The notes beneath the pieces are model-generated. The model did not search any database. It was not told where the DNA came from and saw only the letters and a list, made by a program, of their open reading frames with translations. Below are positions 2 through 11,912 of a stretch of DNA of 64,000 nt, piece by piece. Positions within the stretch are counted from its first letter, which is position 1. Each line of letters starts with the position of its first letter. A program made the translations under genes and the position numbers. Origin of the DNA: Tricharina praecox (taxonomy: Eukaryota); assembly GCF_024521635.1 (NCBI RefSeq), contig NW_026250425.1, positions 124,001-188,000 of the forward strand. Reading direction: 5' to 3'.

Positions 2-3000
2 CTGCCCCTGAACCTGAAGCTGCAACGGCCCGAGTATGTGATGCTGCCCGACAGCAACCCAGGATCTCCTTACGAAGTTCTAGGTGTCTCGTGGTGGCTA
101 CCCGTTCTGCCAGAGAGCCCGATCGACTCGCCTACACAACTGCTGATTCACGGTGAGGAAGTGGACGATATCGAAGCGTTTCCCCCCCAGTTGAGGCTGC
201 AGCAGCCGGAGTATGTTATGCACCCAGATAGCGCTCCCAATTCGCCGACGCAGTTGCCAGCTTTGCCGTACATTGCTCCGAAGAGTCTGCCGATCGGAAT
301 TCAAGACGAGCAGAAGGAAGATGATGTTGCGGGATTGATTGCTCGAGAGGATGCGGAGGAGCTGCCACTTCACCTCAGGCTGCAGCGGCCCGAGTATGTC
401 ATGCTCCCAGATAGCAGGCCCGGTTCGCCCTACGAAGTTGAAGAGATCCAGCGGTCTCTGTCAGCTCTGGGTTTGCGTACCCAACTGCCGAAGTTACAGG
501 ACAGTATTCTGGAGACTCGGCCGTTCGCCACACAAGATGAGAACAAGGAGGACGACGTCGCGAGAATAGTTGGGCTAGAGGACGCAGAGGAACTTCCTCT
601 TCATCGCAGACTGAAGCGGCCGGAGTATGTCATGCTACCAGACAGCAGACCCGGTTCGCCAACGCAATTATCGCTGCCAACGGATTCTATTGCAATGACT
701 CTCCCGTTCGCCACTCGAGATGAGAAGAAGGAGGACGACGTCGCCAGAATGGTTGGACTAGAAGATGCTGAGGAGCTTCCTCTTCATCTCAGGCTGCAAC
801 GGCCGGAATACGTGATGCTCCCGGATAGAGCCCCTAGATCTCCTTACGAGCTCTCGGTGATGCCTTGGGATCTTCCATCGCTACCGGAGAGCACTCCTGG
901 TTCGCCAGCGCAGTTACCACTTGCAGTGTCTCTCCCGTTCCCAACTCAAGATGAGAACACGGAGGACGATGTCGCGCGAATGGTTGGGCTAGAAGATGCT
1001 GAAGAGCTTCCTCTTCATCTCAGGTTGCAGCGGCCGGAGTATGTCATGCTCCCAGAAAGCAGGCCCGGTTCGCCCTACGAAGTTGAAGAGATCCAGCGGT
1101 CTCTGCCAGCTCTGGGTTTGCGTACCCAACTGCCGAAGTTACACGACAGCACTCTGGAGACTCGGCTATTCGCCACCCAAGATGAGAACAAGGAGGACAA
1201 TGTTGCTGGATTGGTCAGACTGGAGGATGCAGAAGAGCTTCCGCTTCATCTCAGGTTGCAACGGCCGGAATACGTGATGCTCCCGGATAGCAGACCCGGT
1301 TCGCCCTACGAACTCTCGGAAATGCCTTGGGATCTTCCATCGCTACCGGAGAGCGCGCCTGGTTCGCCAGCGCAGTCACCATTTGCAGTGTCTCTCCCGT
1401 TCGCCACCCAAGATGAGAAGGAGGAGGACGACGTCGCGAGAATAGTTGGGCTAGAGGACGCAGAGGAACTTCCTCTTCATCGCAGACTGCAGCGGCCGGA
1501 GTATGTCATGCTACCAGACAGCAGACCCGATTCGCCAACGCAATTATCGCGGCCAACGGATTCTATTGCAGTGTCTCTCTCGTCCGCCACTCAAGATGAG
1601 AAGAAGGAGGACGACGTCGCGAGAATGGTTGGGTTGGAGGACGCAGAGGAGCTCCCGCTTCATCTCAGGTTGCAACGGCCGGAATACGTGATGCTCCCGG
1701 ATAGCAGACCCGGTTCGCCCTACGAACTCTCGGAAATGCCTTGGGATCTTCCATCGCTACCGGAGAGCGCGCCTGGTTCGCCAGCGCAGTCACCATTTGC
1801 AGTGTCTCTCCCGTTCGCCACCCAAGATGAGAAGGAGGAGGACGACGTCGCGAGAATGGTTGGGTTGGAGGACGCAGAGGAGCTTCCTCCTCACCTCAGG
1901 CTGCAACGGCCGGAATACGTGATGCTCCCGGATAGCAACCCTGGATCGCCCTACGAAATGCCAGAACTTCCTTGGTATCTACCTGCTCTACCAAAGAGCG
2001 CGCCTGGTTCACCCACACAGATGCTGCAAGACAGCGATTCGAAGAACCTGCCTTTCGCGGAGCAGCAGCAGGAGAATATCGGCTTTTCGCGATTAGGCTC
2101 GCCCCGGTCAACGAACATGGATGACGAAGAGGAATACTCGTGGTGGGCGGCATCACCGGAATGGGTGGACAGTGATGAGAGACAATACCCTCTCTATCTG
2201 AAGTTGCAACAGCCAGAGTATGTCGTACTACCGGATAGCAATCCTGGTTCGCCTTATGAGCCCGCCAGCGTGCCTTGGTACCTACCGCCGCTGCCGGAAA
2301 GTCCAGCCAATTCGCCGACGCAGCTGCCGCAGTTGCAGAAAGGTGTTCCGGAGAAGCTTCACCTCGAAGTACAGCAGCCTCGGGATGTGACCCTTCCGCT
2401 CAGCAATCCCGCTTCGCCCTATGAGCATACTCCCCCCGGATTCCCTCTTGGCTCTCCCATACAGCTATCGCAAAAGTCGCCAAGCAGCATTGCCGGAACC
2501 CCGATCACTGCTGTTAAGAAGGATAGAGAAGAAGATGATGGCGAAACCGGTGGCGTATCTCTCGCATATGGTAGTCTCTGGAAGAAAGCGGTCCGTCATG
2601 AGAAAGAGAAGAAAACGGTGCTGAAGGTTCTCAGCAACCTTTCTCTACGAGATATTTTGCGTCCCGTGGATGTTCCCCTCCCTGCAAGCAGGCCTGGATC
2701 GCCCTACGAGTTTGCTGCACTTCCGTGGTACCTGCCACCTCTTCCCGAGAGCCCTCTCGGTTCGCCGAACCAGTCACCGCAGTCACACATGTCTATTCCG
2801 GGGGACCTATCTCTCGAGACTCAACTGACACAGTATGAGGGTTCGTCGACAGCATCATCACCTCAACAGGCACACTATGATTATAACGGGACTACGTGGT
2901 CGGCCAGTTCTTCGGAGGCCCAGAGCGATGGTGAGGAAGAGCTTCCTCTCTACCTCCGTCTTCAGCAGCCCGATTATGTGATGCTCCCAGATAGCAACCC

Positions 3001-6000
3001 TGGGTCTCCCTACGAGCTTCCAGCTCTACCGTGGTATCTACCACCGCTTCCGGAGAGCCCTCCCGATTCGCCAACCTTGCTGTCTGAAGATGCCCTGTCC
3101 GAGAGTGATCAGAGTTCTCCCTATGTTCTTCCCGCAGTTCCATCGGACTTGTCAGCGCTCCCATCATCGAGGCTAGATTCGCATACGCTAGAGAGCTCGC
3201 CGGTTTTCCCTACCGAACAAGCAAGAAATACGGATGTGCCAAGGATGGCGTCCCCAGTGTCAGATGACGGCGTAGGCGGTGTGCCTTTGGTATATGGCGG
3301 TCTTTGGAAGAAGGCTTTCGAAAAAGAGAAGAAGCAGCAGACGTTGCGTCGCGTTGCCAGTGCTCTGAGGGAACCTCTTCGCAAAAATTTGCGTGCCGAG
3401 GATGTCCCCCTTCCTGCAAGCAGACCTGGGTCTCCCTATGAGCTTCCGGCTTTGCCGTGGTATCTACCGCCTCTTCCCATGAGCCCGGGTGGCTCTCCCG
3501 TCTTGCTTGCCGATGATTGGTCTCGCTCACCTAGCGAACCTAGATCTCCTTACTTCCTTCCTGAGGATGCGCCCGAAATGGTGGAACTTCCAGAAAGCTG
3601 GCCCGCCAGCCCGTACAGTCTTCCGGAGGTACCAGAAAATCTTCCAACACTGCCCAGTAGTCCGTGGTACTCGCCAACCCTGGAGCCAAGCCCCCTCGAT
3701 GTGGATATTCCTGAGAGCAGGCCATCGTCGCCGTACGACCTCCCGATGCCGGCTTACCTGCCAATGCTTCCGCAGAGTCGCGCGAGCTCGCCAACTTTGC
3801 TTCCACAGAACTTGTCGCTGCCATCCACCAGAGATGGCTCGCCATACATGCTCCCGGTTGTTCCCAACGATCTGCCTGACCTTCCAGAGAGCCCATGGTA
3901 TTCCCCAACTCTGGGACCGAGCCCCCTCGATGCCGATTTGCCTGAGAGTCGCAGCACCTCACCGTACCTACTTCCCGCGGTGCCGTCAAACCTACCGCAA
4001 CTCCCACCAAGCCCGTGGAATTCTCCCACGTTGGGACCGGGTCCCCAAGATCTAGAGCTTCCGCAAAGTGAATGCAGTTCTCCATACCAGCTTCCTGCAG
4101 TGCCGGTCAACCTACCAGTGCTTCCTGCGAGCCCATGGGACTCACCGACGCTGCTACCGGCCCCACAGGATCTCGACTTACCGTCCAGTGGGCCTGGTTC
4201 GCCCTATATGCTTCCAGTGATCCCCAACGATCTTCCCCAGTTGCCACCTAGTGCATTCGGGTCCCCCACCTTGCTTCCGCAAGACGTTGAATTACCCGAG
4301 ACTGCACCAGGCTCGCCCTACTCGTTGCCGGACGTTCCGGATAACCTTCCCGATCTTCCGCCCAGCCCATGGTACTCACCTACTCTAGGTCCTGCGCCTC
4401 AGGACATGAGCCTTCCGTGTAGCAGATCTATGTCCCCTTATTTTCTGCCTGCGATCCCCGATGATCTCCCCCAGCTTCCTGAGAGCGAATGGAATTCGCC
4501 CACGCTCGGGCCGAGTCCGACACAGGTTCGACTTCCTGGCAGTGGACCCGGCTCGCCATACATCCTGCCGCTCGTGGGTGATGATCTCCCGCCGCTCCCA
4601 GACAGCCCTTGGAACTCCCCGACGTTCGGCCCAAGGCCGACAGAGACCGACCTTCCCATTAGCAGGCCGGATTCTCCCTACCAGCTCCCACCGGTCCCTT
4701 TGGAATTACCAGCATTACCGAAATCACCATGGAATTCTCCGACGTTAGGTCCTAGGCCTCAAGAAGTCTCACTCCCCGTCTCGCGACCAAGTTCGCCATA
4801 CACGCTCCCGGCTATCCCTGCGGATCTCCCGCAGCTTCCAGGAAGTCCTTGGGACTCACCCACGCTTGGCCCTGCTCCCCAGCAGGTATTTCTTCCGTCG
4901 AGTTCATCGAACTCACCTTACCAGCTCCCAACGCTTGATGGTCTTCCGCTGCTGCCGCCCAGCCCATGGTATTCGCCGACGCTTGGCCCTCGCCCGCAAG
5001 AGGTGGATCTGCCGTTCAGTAAGCCTGGATCACCGTACCAACTGTCTTTGCCTGTCGACTTGCCGGAGCTACCGCTTTCACCATGGAATTCCCCAGTTTT
5101 GGGGCCGAGGCCCACCGAAGTATCAATACCACTCAGCGTTCCCGGATCGCCGTACAGTTTGGCGATTGAAACGGACTTGCCGCAGCTCCCTGGATCACCA
5201 TGGGACTCGCCAACTCTTGGTCCCCGCCCTCAAGAACTGGGTCTTCCGCTTAGCAAACCTGGATCTCCGTATGCACTGCCAGAGACTGCCTACCTACCCC
5301 AGCTTCCCAGTTCGCCATGGAATTCACCAACTCTTGGACCGCGCCCAATGGAAGTGGATCTCCCCGTCAGCAAGCCAGGCTCGCCATATCAGCTTCCAGA
5401 ATGTGTTCACCTTCCGCAACTGCCGCCGAGCCCGTGGAACTCACCGACACTTGGTCCCCGACCGCAAGAAGTCACCGTTCCACTCAGTCAGCCAGGATCA
5501 CCATACCAGCTTCCGGAGGTTCCAACGGGATTTGCACTGCCCACCTCGCCGTGGAATTCGCCTACCCTTGGACCGAGACCAACGGAGATGACGCTTCCAA
5601 TCAGCCGCCCGGGTTCGCCATGGGAGCTTCGCGTTATCACGACCGGGTTGCCTCAACTGCCTAGCAGTCCTTGGTACTCACCCACCGAGCTTCCACGTCC
5701 TCAAGACGCGGGGCTGCCGAGCAGTAAGCCCGGATCTCCATATTCCCTAGCCGAAGTCGCAGATGATCTTCTGTCGCTTCCATCCAGTCCATGGGACTCC
5801 CCAACATTGGGTCCCCGGCCTCAAGAGACTATGATTCCCGTCAGCCGTCCTGGGTCGCCGTATATGCTCCCAGAGGTGCCCGCCGATATTCCGCAGCTCC
5901 CGCTCAGCCCATGGCACTCGCCGACCCTACTTCCGCGACCACAGGAGAAGGAGCTCCCCATCAGTGCGCCAGGATCGCCGTATGCGTTGTCGGAGATGAT

Positions 6001-9000
6001 GCCTCGCAATGTGCCTGCGCTTCCTATTAGTCCGTGGAATTCGCCGACTTTGGGACCCAGACCTACCGAGACGAAGTTGCCGGTGAGCAAGCCTGGGTCG
6101 CCGTACATGATGCCGGAGATCGATGACCTTCCTACATTGCCACCAAGCTCATGGAATTCACCAACTTTGGGGCCGAGGCCAACGGACAAGGCATTGCCAA
6201 TTAGCAAGCCGGGATCGCCATATCTTCTTCCTGACATCGAGGCACAACAGCTGCCCGTGCTTCCCGTGAGCCCATGGAACTCCCCCACGCTGAGCCCCAG
6301 GCCTCAAGAGGCGGAAATGCCAGAGAGTATGCCTGGTTCGCCGTACATGCTGTCAGATTTGCTGCCCACGGAGATCCCTACGCTGCCGCTCAGCCCTTGG
6401 CACTCACCGACACTAGGACCCAGTCCTCAGGACGTCGAGCTGCCGATCAGCAACCCTGGTTCTCCATTCTACTTGAGCTCGCTTCTGCCAGCACGGATAC
6501 CATCGCTTCCGGCAAGTCCTTGGAACTCCCCAACGCTGGGCCCCCGGCCTCAAGAAGTTGACCTCCCGGAAAGCGAGCCTGGATCTCCGTACCTTCTGTC
6601 GTCTCTGCAGCCGCGATCATTGCCAACCCTACCAGGTAGTCCTTGGGACTCCCCTACACTTGGCCCGGCACCGCAGGACCTCGAGCTCCCCACCAGCCAT
6701 CCCGGATCTCCATACTTCCTTCCGGATGCCGCCGAGCAGCGTCTGCCCGTGTTGCCCTCAAGCCCATGGTTCTCTCCGACACTGCTTCCCCGGCCCCAAG
6801 AGGCAGAGCTGCCATTCAGCCATCCGGGATCGCCCTACCTGCTGTCGGATATCATGCCCACCTGGGTACCGGGGCTTCCGAGCAGTCCCTGGAATTCGCC
6901 GACACTTGGCCCGGCACCGACTGAAAAGGAGCTTCCATCATCCGCTCCCGGCTCCCCTTACGAGTTCACACTTGATGTTACAGCACTGCCGAAATTGCCG
7001 GAGTCGCCGCGTTTGGAGCCAGTTCAAGAGAAGGTTGTCGAAGTGCCACGTTCGGAGCCAGTTCAAGAGAAAGTTGTCGAAACGCCGCTCACGGAGCTTG
7101 CTGTTCCGTCGCCACCCCCGCCATCAGAGGCGTCATCAGTACCGAGGAGAACGTTGTGGAGGAAGAAATCAGGAATCGTGAAGACTCAACCAGAGGTTGC
7201 GGAAGAGAATGAGGATGAATTAGAACAGCTTAAGCTTGTCCCGTCACGGACGATGAGTATCAAGGAAGAAGAAGTGGCGCCGCCATCCCCAACCGCGTCA
7301 ATTGACGACAAGAAGTATGGCATTCCCAATCCCTCCATCGATGAGATGAGTGCTAACCAATCCGTAGGCCGCCTGGCCCCAAGAGAAGAGGCTCGTTCTG
7401 GAATCGAGTGTGGAAGGCCACCGGCACAGTCGCGTCGGCTTCCCCTAGCGAAGGCGAAACCGCCAAAAGCAGGCCTGGAACTCCCACTGGCAAAAGCAGC
7501 CGGCCCGGAACTCCCACCGGTGCCGTGAGCGCATTATCAGCCTTCACGTCACAACTTGCATCAAGCAGGAACGAGAGTAATCCTTTTGATACCCTCGCCC
7601 GTGAGGGCGAAGAGGGTCGGGCTAGAGATTTGCCCCAACACGAGGACTCTGGGAGCGAGTATGCCGAATACAAGAAGAAGACGTTGGAGGAGGAGGAGAG
7701 GAGGGGTAGTTCTAGTCGTGTGGTAGCCATAGAAGATAAGGCGGACGAAGGTGGGAGGAGATCTGTGCGTAGTTTTTTTATGGGGCGATCGAACTAATGG
7801 AGGGGCAACGTATTTTAGAACTAAACATAGAGGATATTCAAGGATCGAATAGAAGGCATTTCGATGTATGTTCTGGGGTTAATGCCGCTGGCTGGATGGC
7901 TGTTAACAATGATTAGGCCCTAGAAAATAACGGAATATGGACGCTCGTGGACTCTGCCACGGGCTCCCCAACGGAAGAATTTGACCAAGAGACTGCCAGT
8001 CTGTCATTGGATCAGGAGTCGGAGCCAGTCTCCATGTACACCATACGGCCAATCACAGTTTCCGAGGAAGCGAAATCAGTATCATCCCAGGAAACCCTAC
8101 CAGCCAATAAGACAACACCTACTGAAATCGCCGAGGAACAAATCAACCGTACGCAAACACAGATTCCCGAAACATCCACTGCTGCACACTCTCTCTCCGC
8201 AGCCACTGCTGTCCCTACACCTGCTATCGCCCGTACAACAACACCTGTTTCAATCACTACACTTCCGGAACAATTCTCACCACTACTCTCTTCCGACGAC
8301 GTATCTTCCCTGGGCATCTCCCTTACCGAGGACGATCTTTCACAGACGGCGACTTTCGCCAACGAAAAACCTCCATACACATCTGAACCTGTTACATTAT
8401 TGTCTTCTATTCCCTCCAGAGCAGCCACCTTAAAATCCCCGTCTCCTTCAGCTGAATCACCAAAGCTTGGTACTAGTGAGCCCCTCCTATTGGCTCCAGC
8501 CACATCAGCTAATGCAGAGGTCTCAGATCACCAATCTCCCCGGCTCTTAGGAACCTCACCGACATTCCCTTCGGAACTAGGATCATCCGCCCCAGGCCCG
8601 CTTACGTCTGAGCCTTCTATCCAGGAAGCTCCCAATCCACGCGAGGATCTCGGTAAGTTCCATCCACAGGAGAGACAAGATAGTTCCACCACCAGCAACA
8701 CTGGCAGCGGCTTCACATCCTCCTATTCCTCCTCTGGCGAAGAAGGCTCCGTCCGGGTATCGATCGAGGCTGACTCTGGTTACGAAGTCTCCGTCCGGCG
8801 CGTCTCTTCTGGTGAAAACCGTCGCAAGGGCTCAATAGGAGTTAGGATTTCCCAATTGGTTGGTAGATTCGAGCTTCAGCCACAGTCGTCCACCGAGTCG
8901 CTCCGCTCTTTTTCCAGCTCCCGCTCTATTTCTCCCTTCGTCGAGCCGGAAGCCAAAGAGGCCGCACCCAAGGAGGCATACAAGAGCCTTTTCGGCGGCC

Positions 9001-11444
9001 CTTCGTTCGAGGACGGTGCGGCATTCAACCCATTCGCAGCCAAAGAGTCCACGGAGAAATCCGAATCGAGACTCGCGCGACGCCACAGTAACTTCGAGCT
9101 CAAGCCATCTACCATCACCCACTCCCCCATCGTCTCTCCAACTCACGTTTCATTCCCGCTCCCTACTATCGTCGAAGCTTCAGCCGACGAGCGACCACTT
9201 GCCAACCCCGTGATCAAGGCATTACGGCGCACAGCCACCGAGAACTCATTCTTCCGGCTACCGGCACAACCCACGCGAACTGAGACATCCAAGCAACCCG
9301 AAGCTTCAACAGCCGGTAGCCGTTTCATCACAGCTGAGGACATCCTCCGTCTGCAAAGCGACGTACCGCGCCGCGCTAAATCCGCAATCCGAGCTACGCG
9401 CCCGCCAGATCTGCAAGAGGACGACAAGATGCAGGTACTCAAGCGCGGTGAGCGCGCTGGCAAGGCGCCATCACTGCGTCGCGTCGGCTCCCAGATCGAA
9501 AGCCCGCGCACTTCTTCCGAGCACATCATCTTCGGCGAGCGCTTCACCACTCCCGTGCGGCCGGGAAGCGCGCACGACAAGACGCGAGATGGCATTCTCG
9601 AAGCATGGGGCGAACAGCACCCACAGCCAAGCTCGCCTACGCGGCCGCCAAGCATCCGCCGGCGGCAAAGTCTCAAGCTGATGGACCTCGAACAGAAGGT
9701 CGAGTTGCTCGGCGTCGAAAACGGCACACTGGTGCACGAAAAGGCCAACCTGGAGAAATCGCTGGCCAAGACGCGCACCGATCAACAGGAAGCGACAGCC
9801 GCGCTGGCTGAGAAGCTCCAGTCTGCCGACCAGGTCCTTGCCGACAAGAATGCCGAGATCGACGAGCTCAACAAGAAGCTGGCCTGGTATCAGGAGGAAA
9901 TGCTCCGTCTTCAAGGCCACAACGCCTCACTTACCCAGCTGCAAGCCGCGTACAAACTCAGCCATGCTAGCATCTCGTCTCGCTACGACAAGAAGTCGCA
10001 GAAGATGTTGGAGCTTACCAACGAGCACACAGAGCTGCTGGCAAAATACAAGTTATTGGAGGACAAAAGCCAGCAAAGCCAGGCCGTCACCGACGAGATC
10101 CTGGCAAAGGATGCTGAACTCCAGTTGCTCCGTAGCGAGCTGCAAAAGGCCCGTGATGAGGTGCGCTCACTCGAGCGCAAGGTCATGGCTCGGCAGAGCA
10201 ACCGCTACCTCGACATCAAAGATCCGTCGCACTTTGCCGACAGCGCCAACATCCTCTTCCAGGAGGCTCAGAAGTGGAGCGAGGCTTTCTCGCACTTTTC
10301 ACTCGGACGCCGCTGCATCCATGTGCACCGCGTCACCGACGAGGATATCAAAGATCGCTTCGAGAATGTGATGCTCGACGACCGAGGCGTACGACGCATG
10401 CTCAAGGATGAGTCCCGGCGTGGCATTGCCATCACGGCCATCATGATGCGCCTCATCTGGGAATTTGTTTTTACGCGCTACCTGTTCGGCCTTGAGACCG
10501 AGGAGCGCCAAAAGCTGCTGTCCTTGGAACGGACTCTCGCCGAAGTCGGTATGTATTTCCCGTTCTCGTGCCCCCCTCAATGACCATTCTTACTGACAAA
10601 CGCAGGCGCACCCTCGGCCGTGCATCAATGGCGCGCAACCACACTCACGCTGCTCTCGCAACGCCAGTCATTCCGCTCGCTGCTCACATCCGCCACCGAA
10701 GCGACCGTCAACGACATCATGAAACACCTCAACTTCCTGCTGCCGCCACCTCCGCAGCACGCCCCCACGGCGATCAGCACGCTCCGCACCCTGCTCAACC
10801 TCGCGGTCAAGCTCGCGCTCGAGATGCGCACGCAGCGGGCCGAATACGTCATGCTGCGCCCTCCCTTCCCGGAATACGACGACCAGGGCGAAGTCTCCAA
10901 CACCATCTACTTCAACGCGGCGCGGATGAAGGCCGTCAACAGCGACGCCTCGCCAACCGACCTCGAAGCTGAGCACGCCACCATCAAATTGGTCCTCTTC
11001 CCGCTGATAATCCGCCGCGGCAACGAGTTCGGCGAGGACTACGAGCACGAGCACATAGTCTACCAGATGCAAGTAGTCGTCACCCGCGCGCAGCTGCGCT
11101 CAGAGAGCAGATGCTCCTCCATGCGGTCAGTTGCAAGCTCCGTCGGCAGCTCGATCCATGGCCACAGCTGGCGCGATGATCAGGCCTCAAAGCAGGCGGT
11201 CAACAGGCTCACGCCAATTACCGACCACTCCCCGCGCACGACGCCGGATCGCAACCGCCGCGAAAGAGATGAGAGTCCCGGACTCCTGCCAAGGATTCCC
11301 GAGCAGACGATTAGACTTGTCGACGATAGCGATGGCGAGATGGATGTTGACGACGAGAGGTTCCGCGACTTTGATATGCCGCCGAGGTATGAGGGTAGTC
11401 TGGGGAAGAAGAGAAGGATCAGTGGGAGTGGTGATCGCGTGTAG
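2..11444 (+). CDS. Giant Pro/Ser-rich repeat protein with Leashin (LAH)-type C-terminal coiled-coil and septal-pore domain; 5' end lies upstream of the window
   Basis: Frame is open from nt 2 (LPLNLKLQRPEYVML...). Intron 7315-7367 (GTATGG..GCTAAC..TAG) joins ORF 38..7528 to the 7408 frame (KPPGPKRRGSFWNRVWKATG). Junction 7751-7916 needs two introns; 7866-7916 is clear, the first donor is uncertain. Intron 10549-10605 (GTATGT..CTGAC..CAG) gives LAEVGAPSAVHQWRATTLTLL. C-terminal motifs IWEFVFTRYLFG..ERQKLLSLERTL, MRTQRAEYVML..PEYD and YFNAARM resemble the conserved C-terminus of Pezizomycotina leashin/involucrin-repeat proteins (recalled, not searched). Confidence 0.75.
295..2030 (+). repeat. 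Coding tandem array I: 8 units with core TQDExxEDDVARxVGLEDAEELPLHLRLQRPEYVMLPDSRPGSP plus interchangeable tails
   Basis: Visible in both protein and DNA; nt 1241-1443 is identical to 1655-1857. Confidence 0.95.
3600..6990 (+). repeat. Coding tandem array II: about 28 units of about 40 aa, consensus LPxLPxSPW(N/D/Y/H)SPTLGPRPQExxLPxSxPGSPYxL
   Basis: 26 W-containing units plus 2 variant units counted in the translation; DNA copies are much more diverged than the peptide. Confidence 0.95.
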
Positions 11445-11853
11445 ACCTTAGTTATTGTGGGTGCTTTGGAGTTTTGGTAGGCCTTCTAATGTCTTTCTGT
11501 TCTCTTTTTACGAATCTTCTGTCATTGTTATGGACCTTTAATACCCCTATGCTTTTAAATGTTTTTGCTTTATGTACTTGCGATGCTTTCTTTGTTTTCA
11601 TATTTTCATGTTTTCTTTGCTTGCTTGAACGGATTACGAAAGGAAAAGACCGAAAAAAGGTGGAAAATCAACAAACCAACCAAAAAAAAAGAAGGGAGGT
11701 AGAACGGGCGTACCCAGGCTTTCTTGTACTGTTACACCTAAGGATTGGATGGAAATGGGGTTTATGTTGTGTTATGTACGTGTAGTCATTGTTTGTTTTT
11801 GTTGCGTTTTAGTTACGTTTTAGTTGAGTTGTATGAATGAATTTATAGTTCGC

Positions 11854-11912
11854 GAATGACTTTCAGAGAGTGAATGACTTTCAGAGAGTGAATGGCTTTC
11901 AGAGAGTGAATG
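11854..11912 (+). repeat. 18-bp tandem repeat x3 (GAATGACTTTCAGAGAGT)
   Basis: Direct reading; one mismatch in the third copy. Confidence 0.9.

Follow-up and report, generated by a model that had tools for sequence, protein, structure and literature searches.

The stretch of DNA analysed here, referred to as the window, comprises 64,000 nucleotides (nt) of Tricharina praecox (contig NW_026250425.1 of assembly GCF_024521635.1, positions 124,001 to 188,000), and its left part is occupied by a large gene which, judging by the predicted architecture of its C-terminus, we place in the Leashin/Lah family, i.e., the proteins that leash Woronin bodies to the septal pore of filamentous ascomycetes. 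Frame 2 of the forward strand, on which all features of the gene are located, forms a single open reading frame (ORF) from 2 to 7528, which is open at its 5' end and holds the whole of the element under study, namely a tandem repeat array at 3587..6931. Once the ORF is split at the LPxSxPxSPY anchor, the array resolves into 28 complete units of 37-41 amino acids (aa) and ends in a partial 29th unit at 6932..7009 (LPSSAPGSPYEFTLDVTALPKLPESP). The first-pass annotation of this DNA, which had placed the array at 3600-6990 and proposed it as a massively multisite phospho-switch, had the start correct to within 13 bases.

The repeat array and its serine pairs

The consensus of the unit reads LPxSxPGSPYxLPxxPxxLPxLPxSPWxSPTLGPRPQExx, in which two related modules of about 20 aa can be recognised on the common skeleton LPxSxxxSP, i.e., a Y-module (LPxSxPGSPY...) followed by a W-module (LPxSPWxSPT...). 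Each unit of about 40 aa carries two SxxxSP motifs, just as had been read from the letters for some 28 repeats, and 57 of the 88 SxxxSP motifs of the entire ORF lie within 3600-6990, together with 86 SP, 23 SPWxSPT and 20 SxPxSPY. When the residues of the array were shuffled 1000 times as a control for chance, SxxxSP appeared 5.4 +/- 2.2 times (maximum 13) against 58 observed in the array, and the full module pattern [LIMV]Px[ST]xxxSP 0.4 times (maximum 3) against 57. Nine columns of the unit, namely P2, S8, P9, L23, P24, S26, S30, P31 and P35, are invariant in 28/28 units, S4 is a Ser in 26 and a Thr in the other two, T32 is kept in 27, and Y10 and W28 are each kept in 26. Among the 28 units, a strictness equal to that of Ser is also displayed by Leu1, Pro2, Tyr10, Leu12, Leu23-Pro24, Leu33 and Pro35.

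The module is also found ahead of the array, in a region at 44..3586 made of repeats of 77 aa (231 nt; Tandem Repeats Finder period 231 at 690-2010) and of irregular copies. This region contributes 22 more LPxSxxxSP modules with acidic spacers between them (e.g., LPDSRPGSPYE...LPESAPGSPAQ), which brings the visible ORF to a total of 79 module copies, i.e., 57 in the array and 22 upstream, and the 77-aa repeats are more acidic than the array, Asp and Glu (D+E) amounting to 16.6%. Three orthologous loci were recovered by a metagenome scan, namely L001, L002 and L003, of which the last two differ by 3 bases. Farther upstream in these orthologous loci (L001 1-4611, L002 3-3592), units of another make can be seen, i.e., GGY[IV]SQPATP[IA]EQWTSGGYLANAG-type units, and the same stretches also contain YSSQPAVAEW[EDN]ARQ-type units and a Lys/Glu-rich block.

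Age of the units and selection on the array

Compared with one another, the 28 units are widely diverged, with a nucleotide identity of 0.57 on average (range 0.45-0.70) and a mean proportion of synonymous differences (pS) of 0.774, 229 of the 378 pairs being at or past saturation (Jukes-Cantor limit). Since synonymous sites between units are saturated, the units of the array are old and have not been homogenised, in agreement with the heavy synonymous divergence that the first-pass annotation had noticed. The mean proportion of nonsynonymous differences (pN) is 0.315, falling to 0.110 over the 21 motif columns and rising to 0.531 over the remaining 20, which gives a pN/pS of 0.41 overall and of 0.14 at the motif columns. 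As such, the ratio is not near 1, and the purifying selection proposed from the letters alone is upheld. The choice of Ser codons in the 79 module copies agrees with this, with AGY used for the first Ser in 70/79 copies and TCN for the second in 78/79, the 22 upstream copies following this rule in 22/22 cases at both positions. A single change cannot turn AGY into TCN, or the reverse, without passing through another amino acid, and the persistence of the two codon classes therefore points to one ancestral module for all copies, in which each Ser has been Ser throughout.

A search with the unit profile further returned a protein, P0014, which is a fragment of an ortholog. Between the window and its orthologs, the units can be matched one to one, idiosyncrasies included, and codon comparison over the array gives a ratio of nonsynonymous to synonymous substitution rates (dN/dS) of 0.111 against L001 (dS 0.62) and 0.136 against L002 (dS 0.52). 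The motif columns stand at 0.028 and 0.043, respectively, and the variable columns at 0.185 and 0.231. In the four Ser columns, the comparison with L001 counts 0 nonsynonymous and 20 synonymous changes in 64 codons, and that with L002 2 nonsynonymous and 10 synonymous changes in 40 codons. Elsewhere in the gene, dN/dS is 0.20-0.23 before the array, 0.16-0.34 behind it, 0.36-0.37 in the disordered part of the following exon, and 0.15 in the coiled coil and hydrophobic segment. The array is thus constrained at least as much as the C-terminal anchor region of the gene, and no other sites measured in the gene are as constrained as its motif columns. At the protein level, 8/314 motif cells and 61/281 variable cells are changed with respect to P0014 (Fisher p 6e-14), a count made without one unit pair that differs in length, which the alignment-based codon comparison includes.

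The array of L001 resembles the outcome of a deletion fusing unit 15 to unit 26, and in L002 key residues are replaced in the two units adjoining the deletion (S to L, S to P, LP to AP). A recent expansion of units 16-26 in the T. praecox genome was considered for the difference in unit number and rejected, as the least-diverged listed pairs involving these units have a pS of about 0.56-0.58, which exceeds that between the array and its L001 counterpart (0.42). With the reservation that units of 40 codons yield noisy pS estimates, the divergence of units 16-26 appears older than the split from L001 and a loss in the relatives is therefore more likely. With respect to the orthologs, synonymous sites have diverged more in the array (dS 0.52-0.62) than in the C-terminal exon (0.32-0.44); possible causes include codon usage, a bias of mutation in repeats and an exchange that occasionally takes place between units.

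Gene structure and expression

Contigs of two public runs (X1 and X2) that are >=99% identical to the window carry GT..AG joints and correspond on this account to spliced RNA. They define the end of a large exon at 2..7314, open at the 5' end of the window, which comprises the 77-aa repeats, the irregular region, the array and a short post-array segment, with a 39-nt tandem repeat of the EPVQEKVVE type (about 2.3 copies, 6991..7097) right behind the array. Next come an intron of 53 nt (7315..7367, GT..AG, joint in both runs) and an intron of 68 nt (7751..7818, GT..AG), which contains an in-frame stop (TAA, 7795-7797) and is likewise spliced in X1 and X2. The latter leads to a micro-exon of 47 nt (7819..7865), which is bounded by two RNA joints and in which one frame is open in three species with only a 3-nt indel, and then to an intron of 51 nt (7866..7916, RNA joints) whose splice signals (donor GTATGT, acceptor TTAG) do not vary in L001 and L002. 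One contig of 5.6 kb links the end of the array exon, via the micro-exon, to 8652; it reaches about 4 kb past the left end of the compared stretch and presumably covers the full array.

The following exon block (7917..10548), supported by the ORF, RNA joints, homologs and a hydrophobicity maximum, encodes a Ser/Thr/Pro-rich disordered part, a coiled-coil-like stretch (~9657-10180) and a hydrophobic segment, RGIAITAIMMRLIWEFVFT (~10420-10490). RNA contigs place within it an in-frame intron of 57 nt (8469..8525) and an uncertain second joint (~8652-8786), and cover none of 8841-11500. As such, a further intron of 57 nt (10549..10605, GTATGT...CAG), which would remove an in-frame stop, is proposed from splice signals and from homologs that run uninterrupted across it (...LxEVGPxxAVxQWRATTL). 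The last exon (10606..11444) encodes the C-terminal tail of about 278 aa past the hydrophobic segment, up to the stop. The array is transcribed and spliced to exons running on to the Lah-type C-terminal anchor. An end of the gene at the stop at 7795, which would have meant separate genes as for LAH-1 and LAH-2, was rejected because the RNA joints remove this stop.

If the 68-nt intron is read on, the frame is kept through ...GGRRSVRSFFMGRSN and then reaches the stop (...SVRSFFMGRSN*). This read-on is near-invariant in nucleotides across three species (L001 ~10560-10630, L002 ~10200-10270), far above the level of synonymous sites elsewhere, and X1 also has an unspliced contig of 101 nt (7721-7821) across the intron. 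Intron retention would possibly lead to a short isoform with the array and devoid of the C-terminal pore anchor, which recalls the LAH-1/LAH-2 split of Neurospora crassa.

The 3' flank of the gene contains, at 11854-11912, a tandem repeat of 18 nt (3.3 copies, 97% matches). Neighbouring ORFs at 13078-63355 correspond to common housekeeping genes of fungi, namely NFACT/Tae2-like, NAD-glutamate dehydrogenase, JmjC, Tom37/Sam37-like, VTC polyphosphate subunit and APC2 genes, and none of the 16 neighbouring ORFs scanned in this interval is a kinase or a phosphatase.

Family membership and composition

The assignment to the Leashin/Lah family is suggested by the C-terminal part of the protein. Residues 590-888 of the 7917-10580 frame match 12 Pezizomycotina proteins of 2456-4348 aa (E 4.7e-36 to 7.7e-20); the first 500 residues of this 888-aa exon product are not conserved. 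With the named matches, which stem from Penicillium, Ophiocordyceps, Erysiphe ("putative involucrin repeat protein") and Parastagonospora, the identity is only 30-41%, and none of the 12 carries an explicit Lah or Leashin name, the designation "involucrin repeat protein" being one that we take to be linked to Lah. What all homologs have in common is a long stretch of coiled-coil-like character, together with a hydrophobic segment (...IWE[FY][VI]FTRYLFG) and a tail, the distance from the hydrophobic segment to the C-terminal end being 222-255 aa in 11/11 homologs measured and 310 aa here, where the tail is longer. For Aspergillus fumigatus Lah, a coiled coil, a transmembrane region with two valines about 220-240 residues from the end and a tail of 219 aa are reported, an architecture described as conserved in N. 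crassa LAH-2 and other aspergilli (PMC5345055). The same Lah-type layout, i.e., a coiled coil followed by a hydrophobic segment, is present in the gene analysed here. No Pfam family reaches the threshold in any exon, and the ESM Atlas matches of the C-terminal part are confined to ascomycete clusters and uninformative.

Concerning size, the visible protein spans about 3,600 aa and at least about 1,500 more aa of open frame lie upstream in L001, to be compared with 5,936-10,821 aa reported for Leashins by Ng et al. 2009 (PMC2690989). The 5 kb of upstream flank in L001 and L002 contain more repeats, and the N-terminus of the protein, which in Leashins holds the region binding Woronin bodies (WSC), lies outside the window and is not reached within these flanks either. 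The highly acidic linker of the Leashin type is not found in the array, where Pro, Leu and Ser are enriched but D+E account for only 9.3%, compared with 14-24% in 13 homologs of the family. Against the same 13 homologs, the array is richer in Pro (25% vs 4-12%), Leu (14% vs 4-8%) and aromatic residues (6.5% vs 1.4-4.6%), and it has 5.0 SxxxSP per 100 aa where they have 0-0.27; the repeat itself is absent from all 13. The array further contains 14% Ser, 4.9% Glu and few Lys, for a net charge of -61 (-0.053 per residue).

This composition fits a disordered, proline-rich chain, as does structure prediction. For three units, AlphaFold2 returned a mean pLDDT of 49.9, a pTM of 0.13 and no secondary structure, from a shallow alignment of 26 rows made of overlapping, paralogous three-unit windows. 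A folded repeat domain was rejected, with no Pfam family at threshold and no fold from AlphaFold2.

Distant copies of the module

The repeat is rare, since of 1.84 billion representative proteins only 10 match the unit profile (E <= 0.001), and there was no match when the array was searched among proteins of 4390-5000 aa. The alignment to the unit profile comprises 139 units, namely 44 from the window, 30 from L001, 28 from L002 and 37 from eight more distant proteins (P0015-P0022), which are gene models and possibly fragments or chimeras. In the distant units, nearly every aligned cell of the four Ser columns is occupied by S or T (34/34, 35/35, 34/35 and 33/33), compared with 30/35 cells kept for Tyr10, 26/32 for Thr31, 26/35 for the Pro behind the third Ser and 19/33 for Trp, so that the SxxxSP pair, more than the aromatics, represents the persistent core. 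Throughout the 139 aligned units, Ser is exchanged for Thr in a handful of cells and for Asp or Glu in none. On the sequences compared, no other feature persists as firmly as the two serine pairs of each unit, whatever the context of the module. The preferential conservation of Ser put forward in the first-pass annotation thereby holds, the four Ser columns being among the best kept both in ortholog codons and in distant units; within the T. praecox genome, the Leu and Pro of the LP dipeptides are kept about as well.

Two of the distant carriers have remainders of other kinds. In P0017 (571 aa), 4 units stand behind a coiled coil, which is itself preceded by a Ser/Thr kinase domain of CAMK-like type, represented by its C-terminal two-thirds (Pfam Pkinase, 2.3e-30; the solved chains nearest to it are Rad53 and CaMK1), and P0016 has a different N-terminus of 230 aa and 7 units. 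Six non-repeat parts of repeat carriers were compared with the window, L001 and L002 by tblastn, and no match was obtained. Unless the gene model of P0017 is chimeric, the module would not be exclusive to a Leashin-type gene.

Proposed phosphorylation of the array and competing explanations

Two readings are each held here at roughly even confidence, namely (i) that the array constitutes the lineage-specific middle "spring" of a Leashin/Lah-type tether, and (ii) that phosphorylation is the function for which its serines have been selected. In support of the second, the spacing of the serines is that of GSK3 priming, as the first-pass annotation had pointed out, since GSK3 is reported to prefer SX3-4S(P) with the C-terminal Ser pre-phosphorylated (PMC5954166), and this spacing stands far above its shuffled expectation (58 SxxxSP vs 5.4 +/- 2.2). 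Kinases of the DYRK type are described as priming eIF2B, NFAT and tau (PMC5954166), and as favouring Pro at P+1 and Arg at P-3, with RARPGT*PALRE as the DYRK1A consensus peptide, although their specificity is also reported to be flexible (PMC3677093). The Y-module reads S-[R/K/x]-P-G-S-P-Y, and the window contains 9 RPGSP, 19 [RK]PxSP and 75 PxSP; RPGSP is also found in P0015 (4 times) and in P0016 (3 times). The earlier claim of a DYRK consensus RPxSP holds in part: RPG(S/T)P is indeed the core of the DYRK1A peptide (PMC3677093), but exact RPxSP is present in only 5/57 array copies. If either Arg or Lys is admitted, [RK]PxSP is found in 11 array copies and 8 upstream copies.

Published work on septal pores offers a setting for such phosphorylation. 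In A. fumigatus, the DYRK kinase YakA is found at the septal pore, and the septal proteins whose phosphopeptides change most in a YakA-dependent manner include Lah; this link is a correlation, as a reviewer of the study remarked, and the published effect concerns the LahC part (PMC11166925). In Zymoseptoria, ATP depletion sends Woronin bodies into the pores of unwounded cells, for which the authors propose kinases not yet known and a conformational change of Lah (PMC5656841). Within the Leashin literature searched, only the YakA study (preprint and journal version) ties phosphorylation to Leashin, and neither the Ser-pair repeat nor selection on the linker is described.

In the array, a proline-directed kinase, either of the DYRK (YakA) or of the MAPK type, would phosphorylate the more C-terminal Ser in every pair (S-P, often within P-x-S-P or R/K-P-x-S-P), and the phosphorylated S-P would make the Ser four residues upstream a primed site for a GSK3-type kinase. 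In this way, the array could gain up to about 114 phosphates, i.e., about 228 negative charges, which would take its net charge from about -61 to about -290. A Leu/Trp/Tyr/Pro-rich chain that is collapsible or sticky might then be turned into an extended polyanion comparable to the linkers of other Leashins, which are constitutively acidic, and the state of phosphorylation would act as a switch on tether mechanics, setting the length, stiffness or stickiness of the leash and hence where the Woronin body stands with respect to the pore. A more specific version, which we regard as speculative and rather improbable, is that of a spring gauged by ATP, where the acidic linker has been replaced by a Leu/Trp/Tyr/Pro-rich chain that is extended only while about 100 primed Ser pairs are kept phosphorylated without interruption by a pore-resident DYRK/MAPK kinase acting with GSK3. 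A drop in ATP or a switching of the kinases, upon stress or loss of cytoplasm, would let phosphatases prevail, and the collapse of the chain onto its hydrophobic stickers would reel the Woronin body into the pore. If true, this version would provide a mechanism for the ATP dependence of pore opening and for the idea of a contractile tether.

Several points weigh against phosphorylation as the selected function and against the mechanism drawn from it. The number of units varies, with 28 here, 17 in L001 and about 13 in L002, and exact RPxSP is found in a minority of 13/79 copies (5/57 in the array, 8/22 upstream). The Lah of A. fumigatus does without this repeat. Exchange of Ser for Thr is near zero and for Asp or Glu zero, where a pure charge or phosphosite role would tolerate more, and Leu, Pro and Tyr are as strict as Ser, beyond any kinase consensus, which docking or structural readings would fit equally well. 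Woronin bodies are reported at the septum 1.2 s after wounding (PMC5656841), in our judgement too fast for the dephosphorylation of about 100 sites. Finally, plugging in A. fumigatus requires YakA, an effect of opposite sign to the notion, taken from the ATP experiment, that phosphorylation keeps the pore open.

The strictness of these other residues would fit a docking role, an explanation that is possible though unlikely in our view. The 20-aa module would then be a multivalent docking or "sticker" motif, whose recognition by a partner, or by other copies of itself, would serve co-assembly along the leash or at the septal pore, with Ser kept for the geometry of binding and phosphorylation at most secondary. 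It would account for Leu, Pro, Tyr and Trp conserved at fixed spacing well past the kinase consensus, for a Ser that is not swapped for Thr, Asp or Glu, and for the presence of the module in proteins whose remainders, without tblastn matches, are unlike this gene (P0016 and P0017), with the caution that P0015-P0022 may be fragments or chimeras. No known partner can be named for it, however, no Pfam domain or known ligand motif was matched, and the best sticker candidates are less kept than the serines in distant copies (W 19/33, adjacent Pro 26/35). Ligands of WW domains of the PPxY or LPxY type were considered and rejected, the prolines being wrongly placed relative to the Tyr.

It also appears doubtful that the array is a purely mechanical elastomer, in which polyproline-II stretches and Ser-Pro turns would make the motif residues structural, without regulation by modification. 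S-P-x-x turns are a known structural motif, and the 25% Pro, the 14% Leu and the lack of any predicted fold agree with such a chain. Likewise, Ng et al. 2009 compare Leashin linkers to the PEVK region of titin (PMC2690989), and optical trapping showed elastic tethering (PMC5656841). Entropic springs, however, usually drift in sequence, whereas the motif columns are held at a dN/dS of 0.03-0.04, and there is no obvious structural reason for S4, which is not proline-directed, to stand exactly 4 residues ahead of S-P. Since the number of units varies between 28, 17 and 13, a precise length is not what selection keeps either. A neutral low-complexity sequence or an artefact of assembly or annotation, devoid of function, is very improbable and was refuted: central Leashin regions are indeed reported as poorly conserved (PMC2690989), but a dN/dS of 0.11-0.14 with unit-by-unit orthology in three independent metagenome loci, RNA contigs >=99% identical in two runs and the persistence of Ser codon classes over 79 copies all stand against it.

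Significance and comparison with known systems

The interest of a tether whose middle part may be phosphorylated lies in the question of how Woronin bodies are kept off the septal pore and then moved into it, for which an elastic tether and a need for ATP to keep pores open have been published (PMC5656841). The middle of Leashin has so far been treated as a poorly conserved spacer, and here it is constrained as much as or more than any part of the gene measured. As such, the array represents a natural, highly amplified substrate for asking whether multisite phosphorylation governs the mechanics of the tether, with a Ser pair at kinase-priming spacing repeated 57 times, and its module is compact enough (40 aa) to be transplanted into model fungi. 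Should the serines not be phosphorylated, there would still be a rare, strongly selected and lineage-restricted linear-motif repeat in need of a partner or a structural explanation.

The closest known system is the Leashin of N. crassa, LAH-1/LAH-2, likewise a giant Pezizomycotina tether with a repetitive, Pro/Leu/Ser-rich and non-globular middle (PMC2690989; PMC5345055), LAH-2 sharing the conserved C-terminal region with the gene analysed here (PMC5345055). Its repeats, i.e., R1 (LPVDEDLDLLPALPES) and R2/R3 (PEEVELPASP), are described as 10-16 aa long and highly acidic, in a protein with a calculated charge of -1088, and have in their printed form at most one S-P each (PMC2690989), whereas the unit of the array has 40 aa, 9.3% D+E and two SxxxSP pairs plus conserved Tyr and Trp. 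The likeness, which concerns printed consensus strings and not aligned sequence, resides in LPxLPxS and E-[VL]-x-LPxSP, to be found here as ...DLPxLPxSPW and ...PQEVxLPxS. Because these strings share LPxLPxS and E-V-x-LPxSP with the unit, they suggest a common ancestral LPxS(P) element, which would have been duplicated in the present lineage, with loss of acidic residues and gain of the second Ser. In A. fumigatus, Lah would belong to the same family by C-terminal architecture, and the Y-module displays the DYRK-type core [R/K]PGSP, which brings the YakA system to mind; the two homologs retrieved from the Penicillium clade (P0002 and P0003) lack the repeat, with 0-0.03 SxxxSP per 100 aa.

Outside the family, titin PEVK is likewise a proline-rich, disordered and repeat-built entropic spring in a giant tether, an analogy already drawn by Ng et al. 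2009 (PMC2690989). There is no sequence relation, PEVK being rich in Glu and Lys when the array has 4.9% Glu and few Lys. The stiffness of titin is reported to be tuned by phosphorylation, and PEVK has a few regulatory sites, compared with four per 40 residues here. The tails of neurofilament-H/M are another case of dozens of Ser-Pro sites in a disordered repeat, the KSP repeat, where multisite phosphorylation alters charge and extension. In the SP motifs of NFAT, DYRK primes for GSK3 (PMC5954166), and the resemblance lies in Ser-Pro sites within disordered sequence. With respect to both, the array differs in its motif (K-S-P vs LPxSxxxSP), in an independent origin of the repeat and in cell biology. 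The C-terminal domain (CTD) of RNA polymerase II (Pol II), which the first-pass annotation had invoked through YSPT, is also a tandem Ser-Pro repeat with a conserved aromatic residue, but this likeness proved superficial: YSPT occurs in 5/28 units, and a CTD-like repeat was rejected on a period of 37-41 aa (module of about 20 aa) instead of 7, a Ser spacing of 4 instead of 3, the absence of a heptad register and the setting in a cytoplasmic tether. While the protein family and multisite Ser-Pro arrays are known, this module and the strong constraint acting on it are new.

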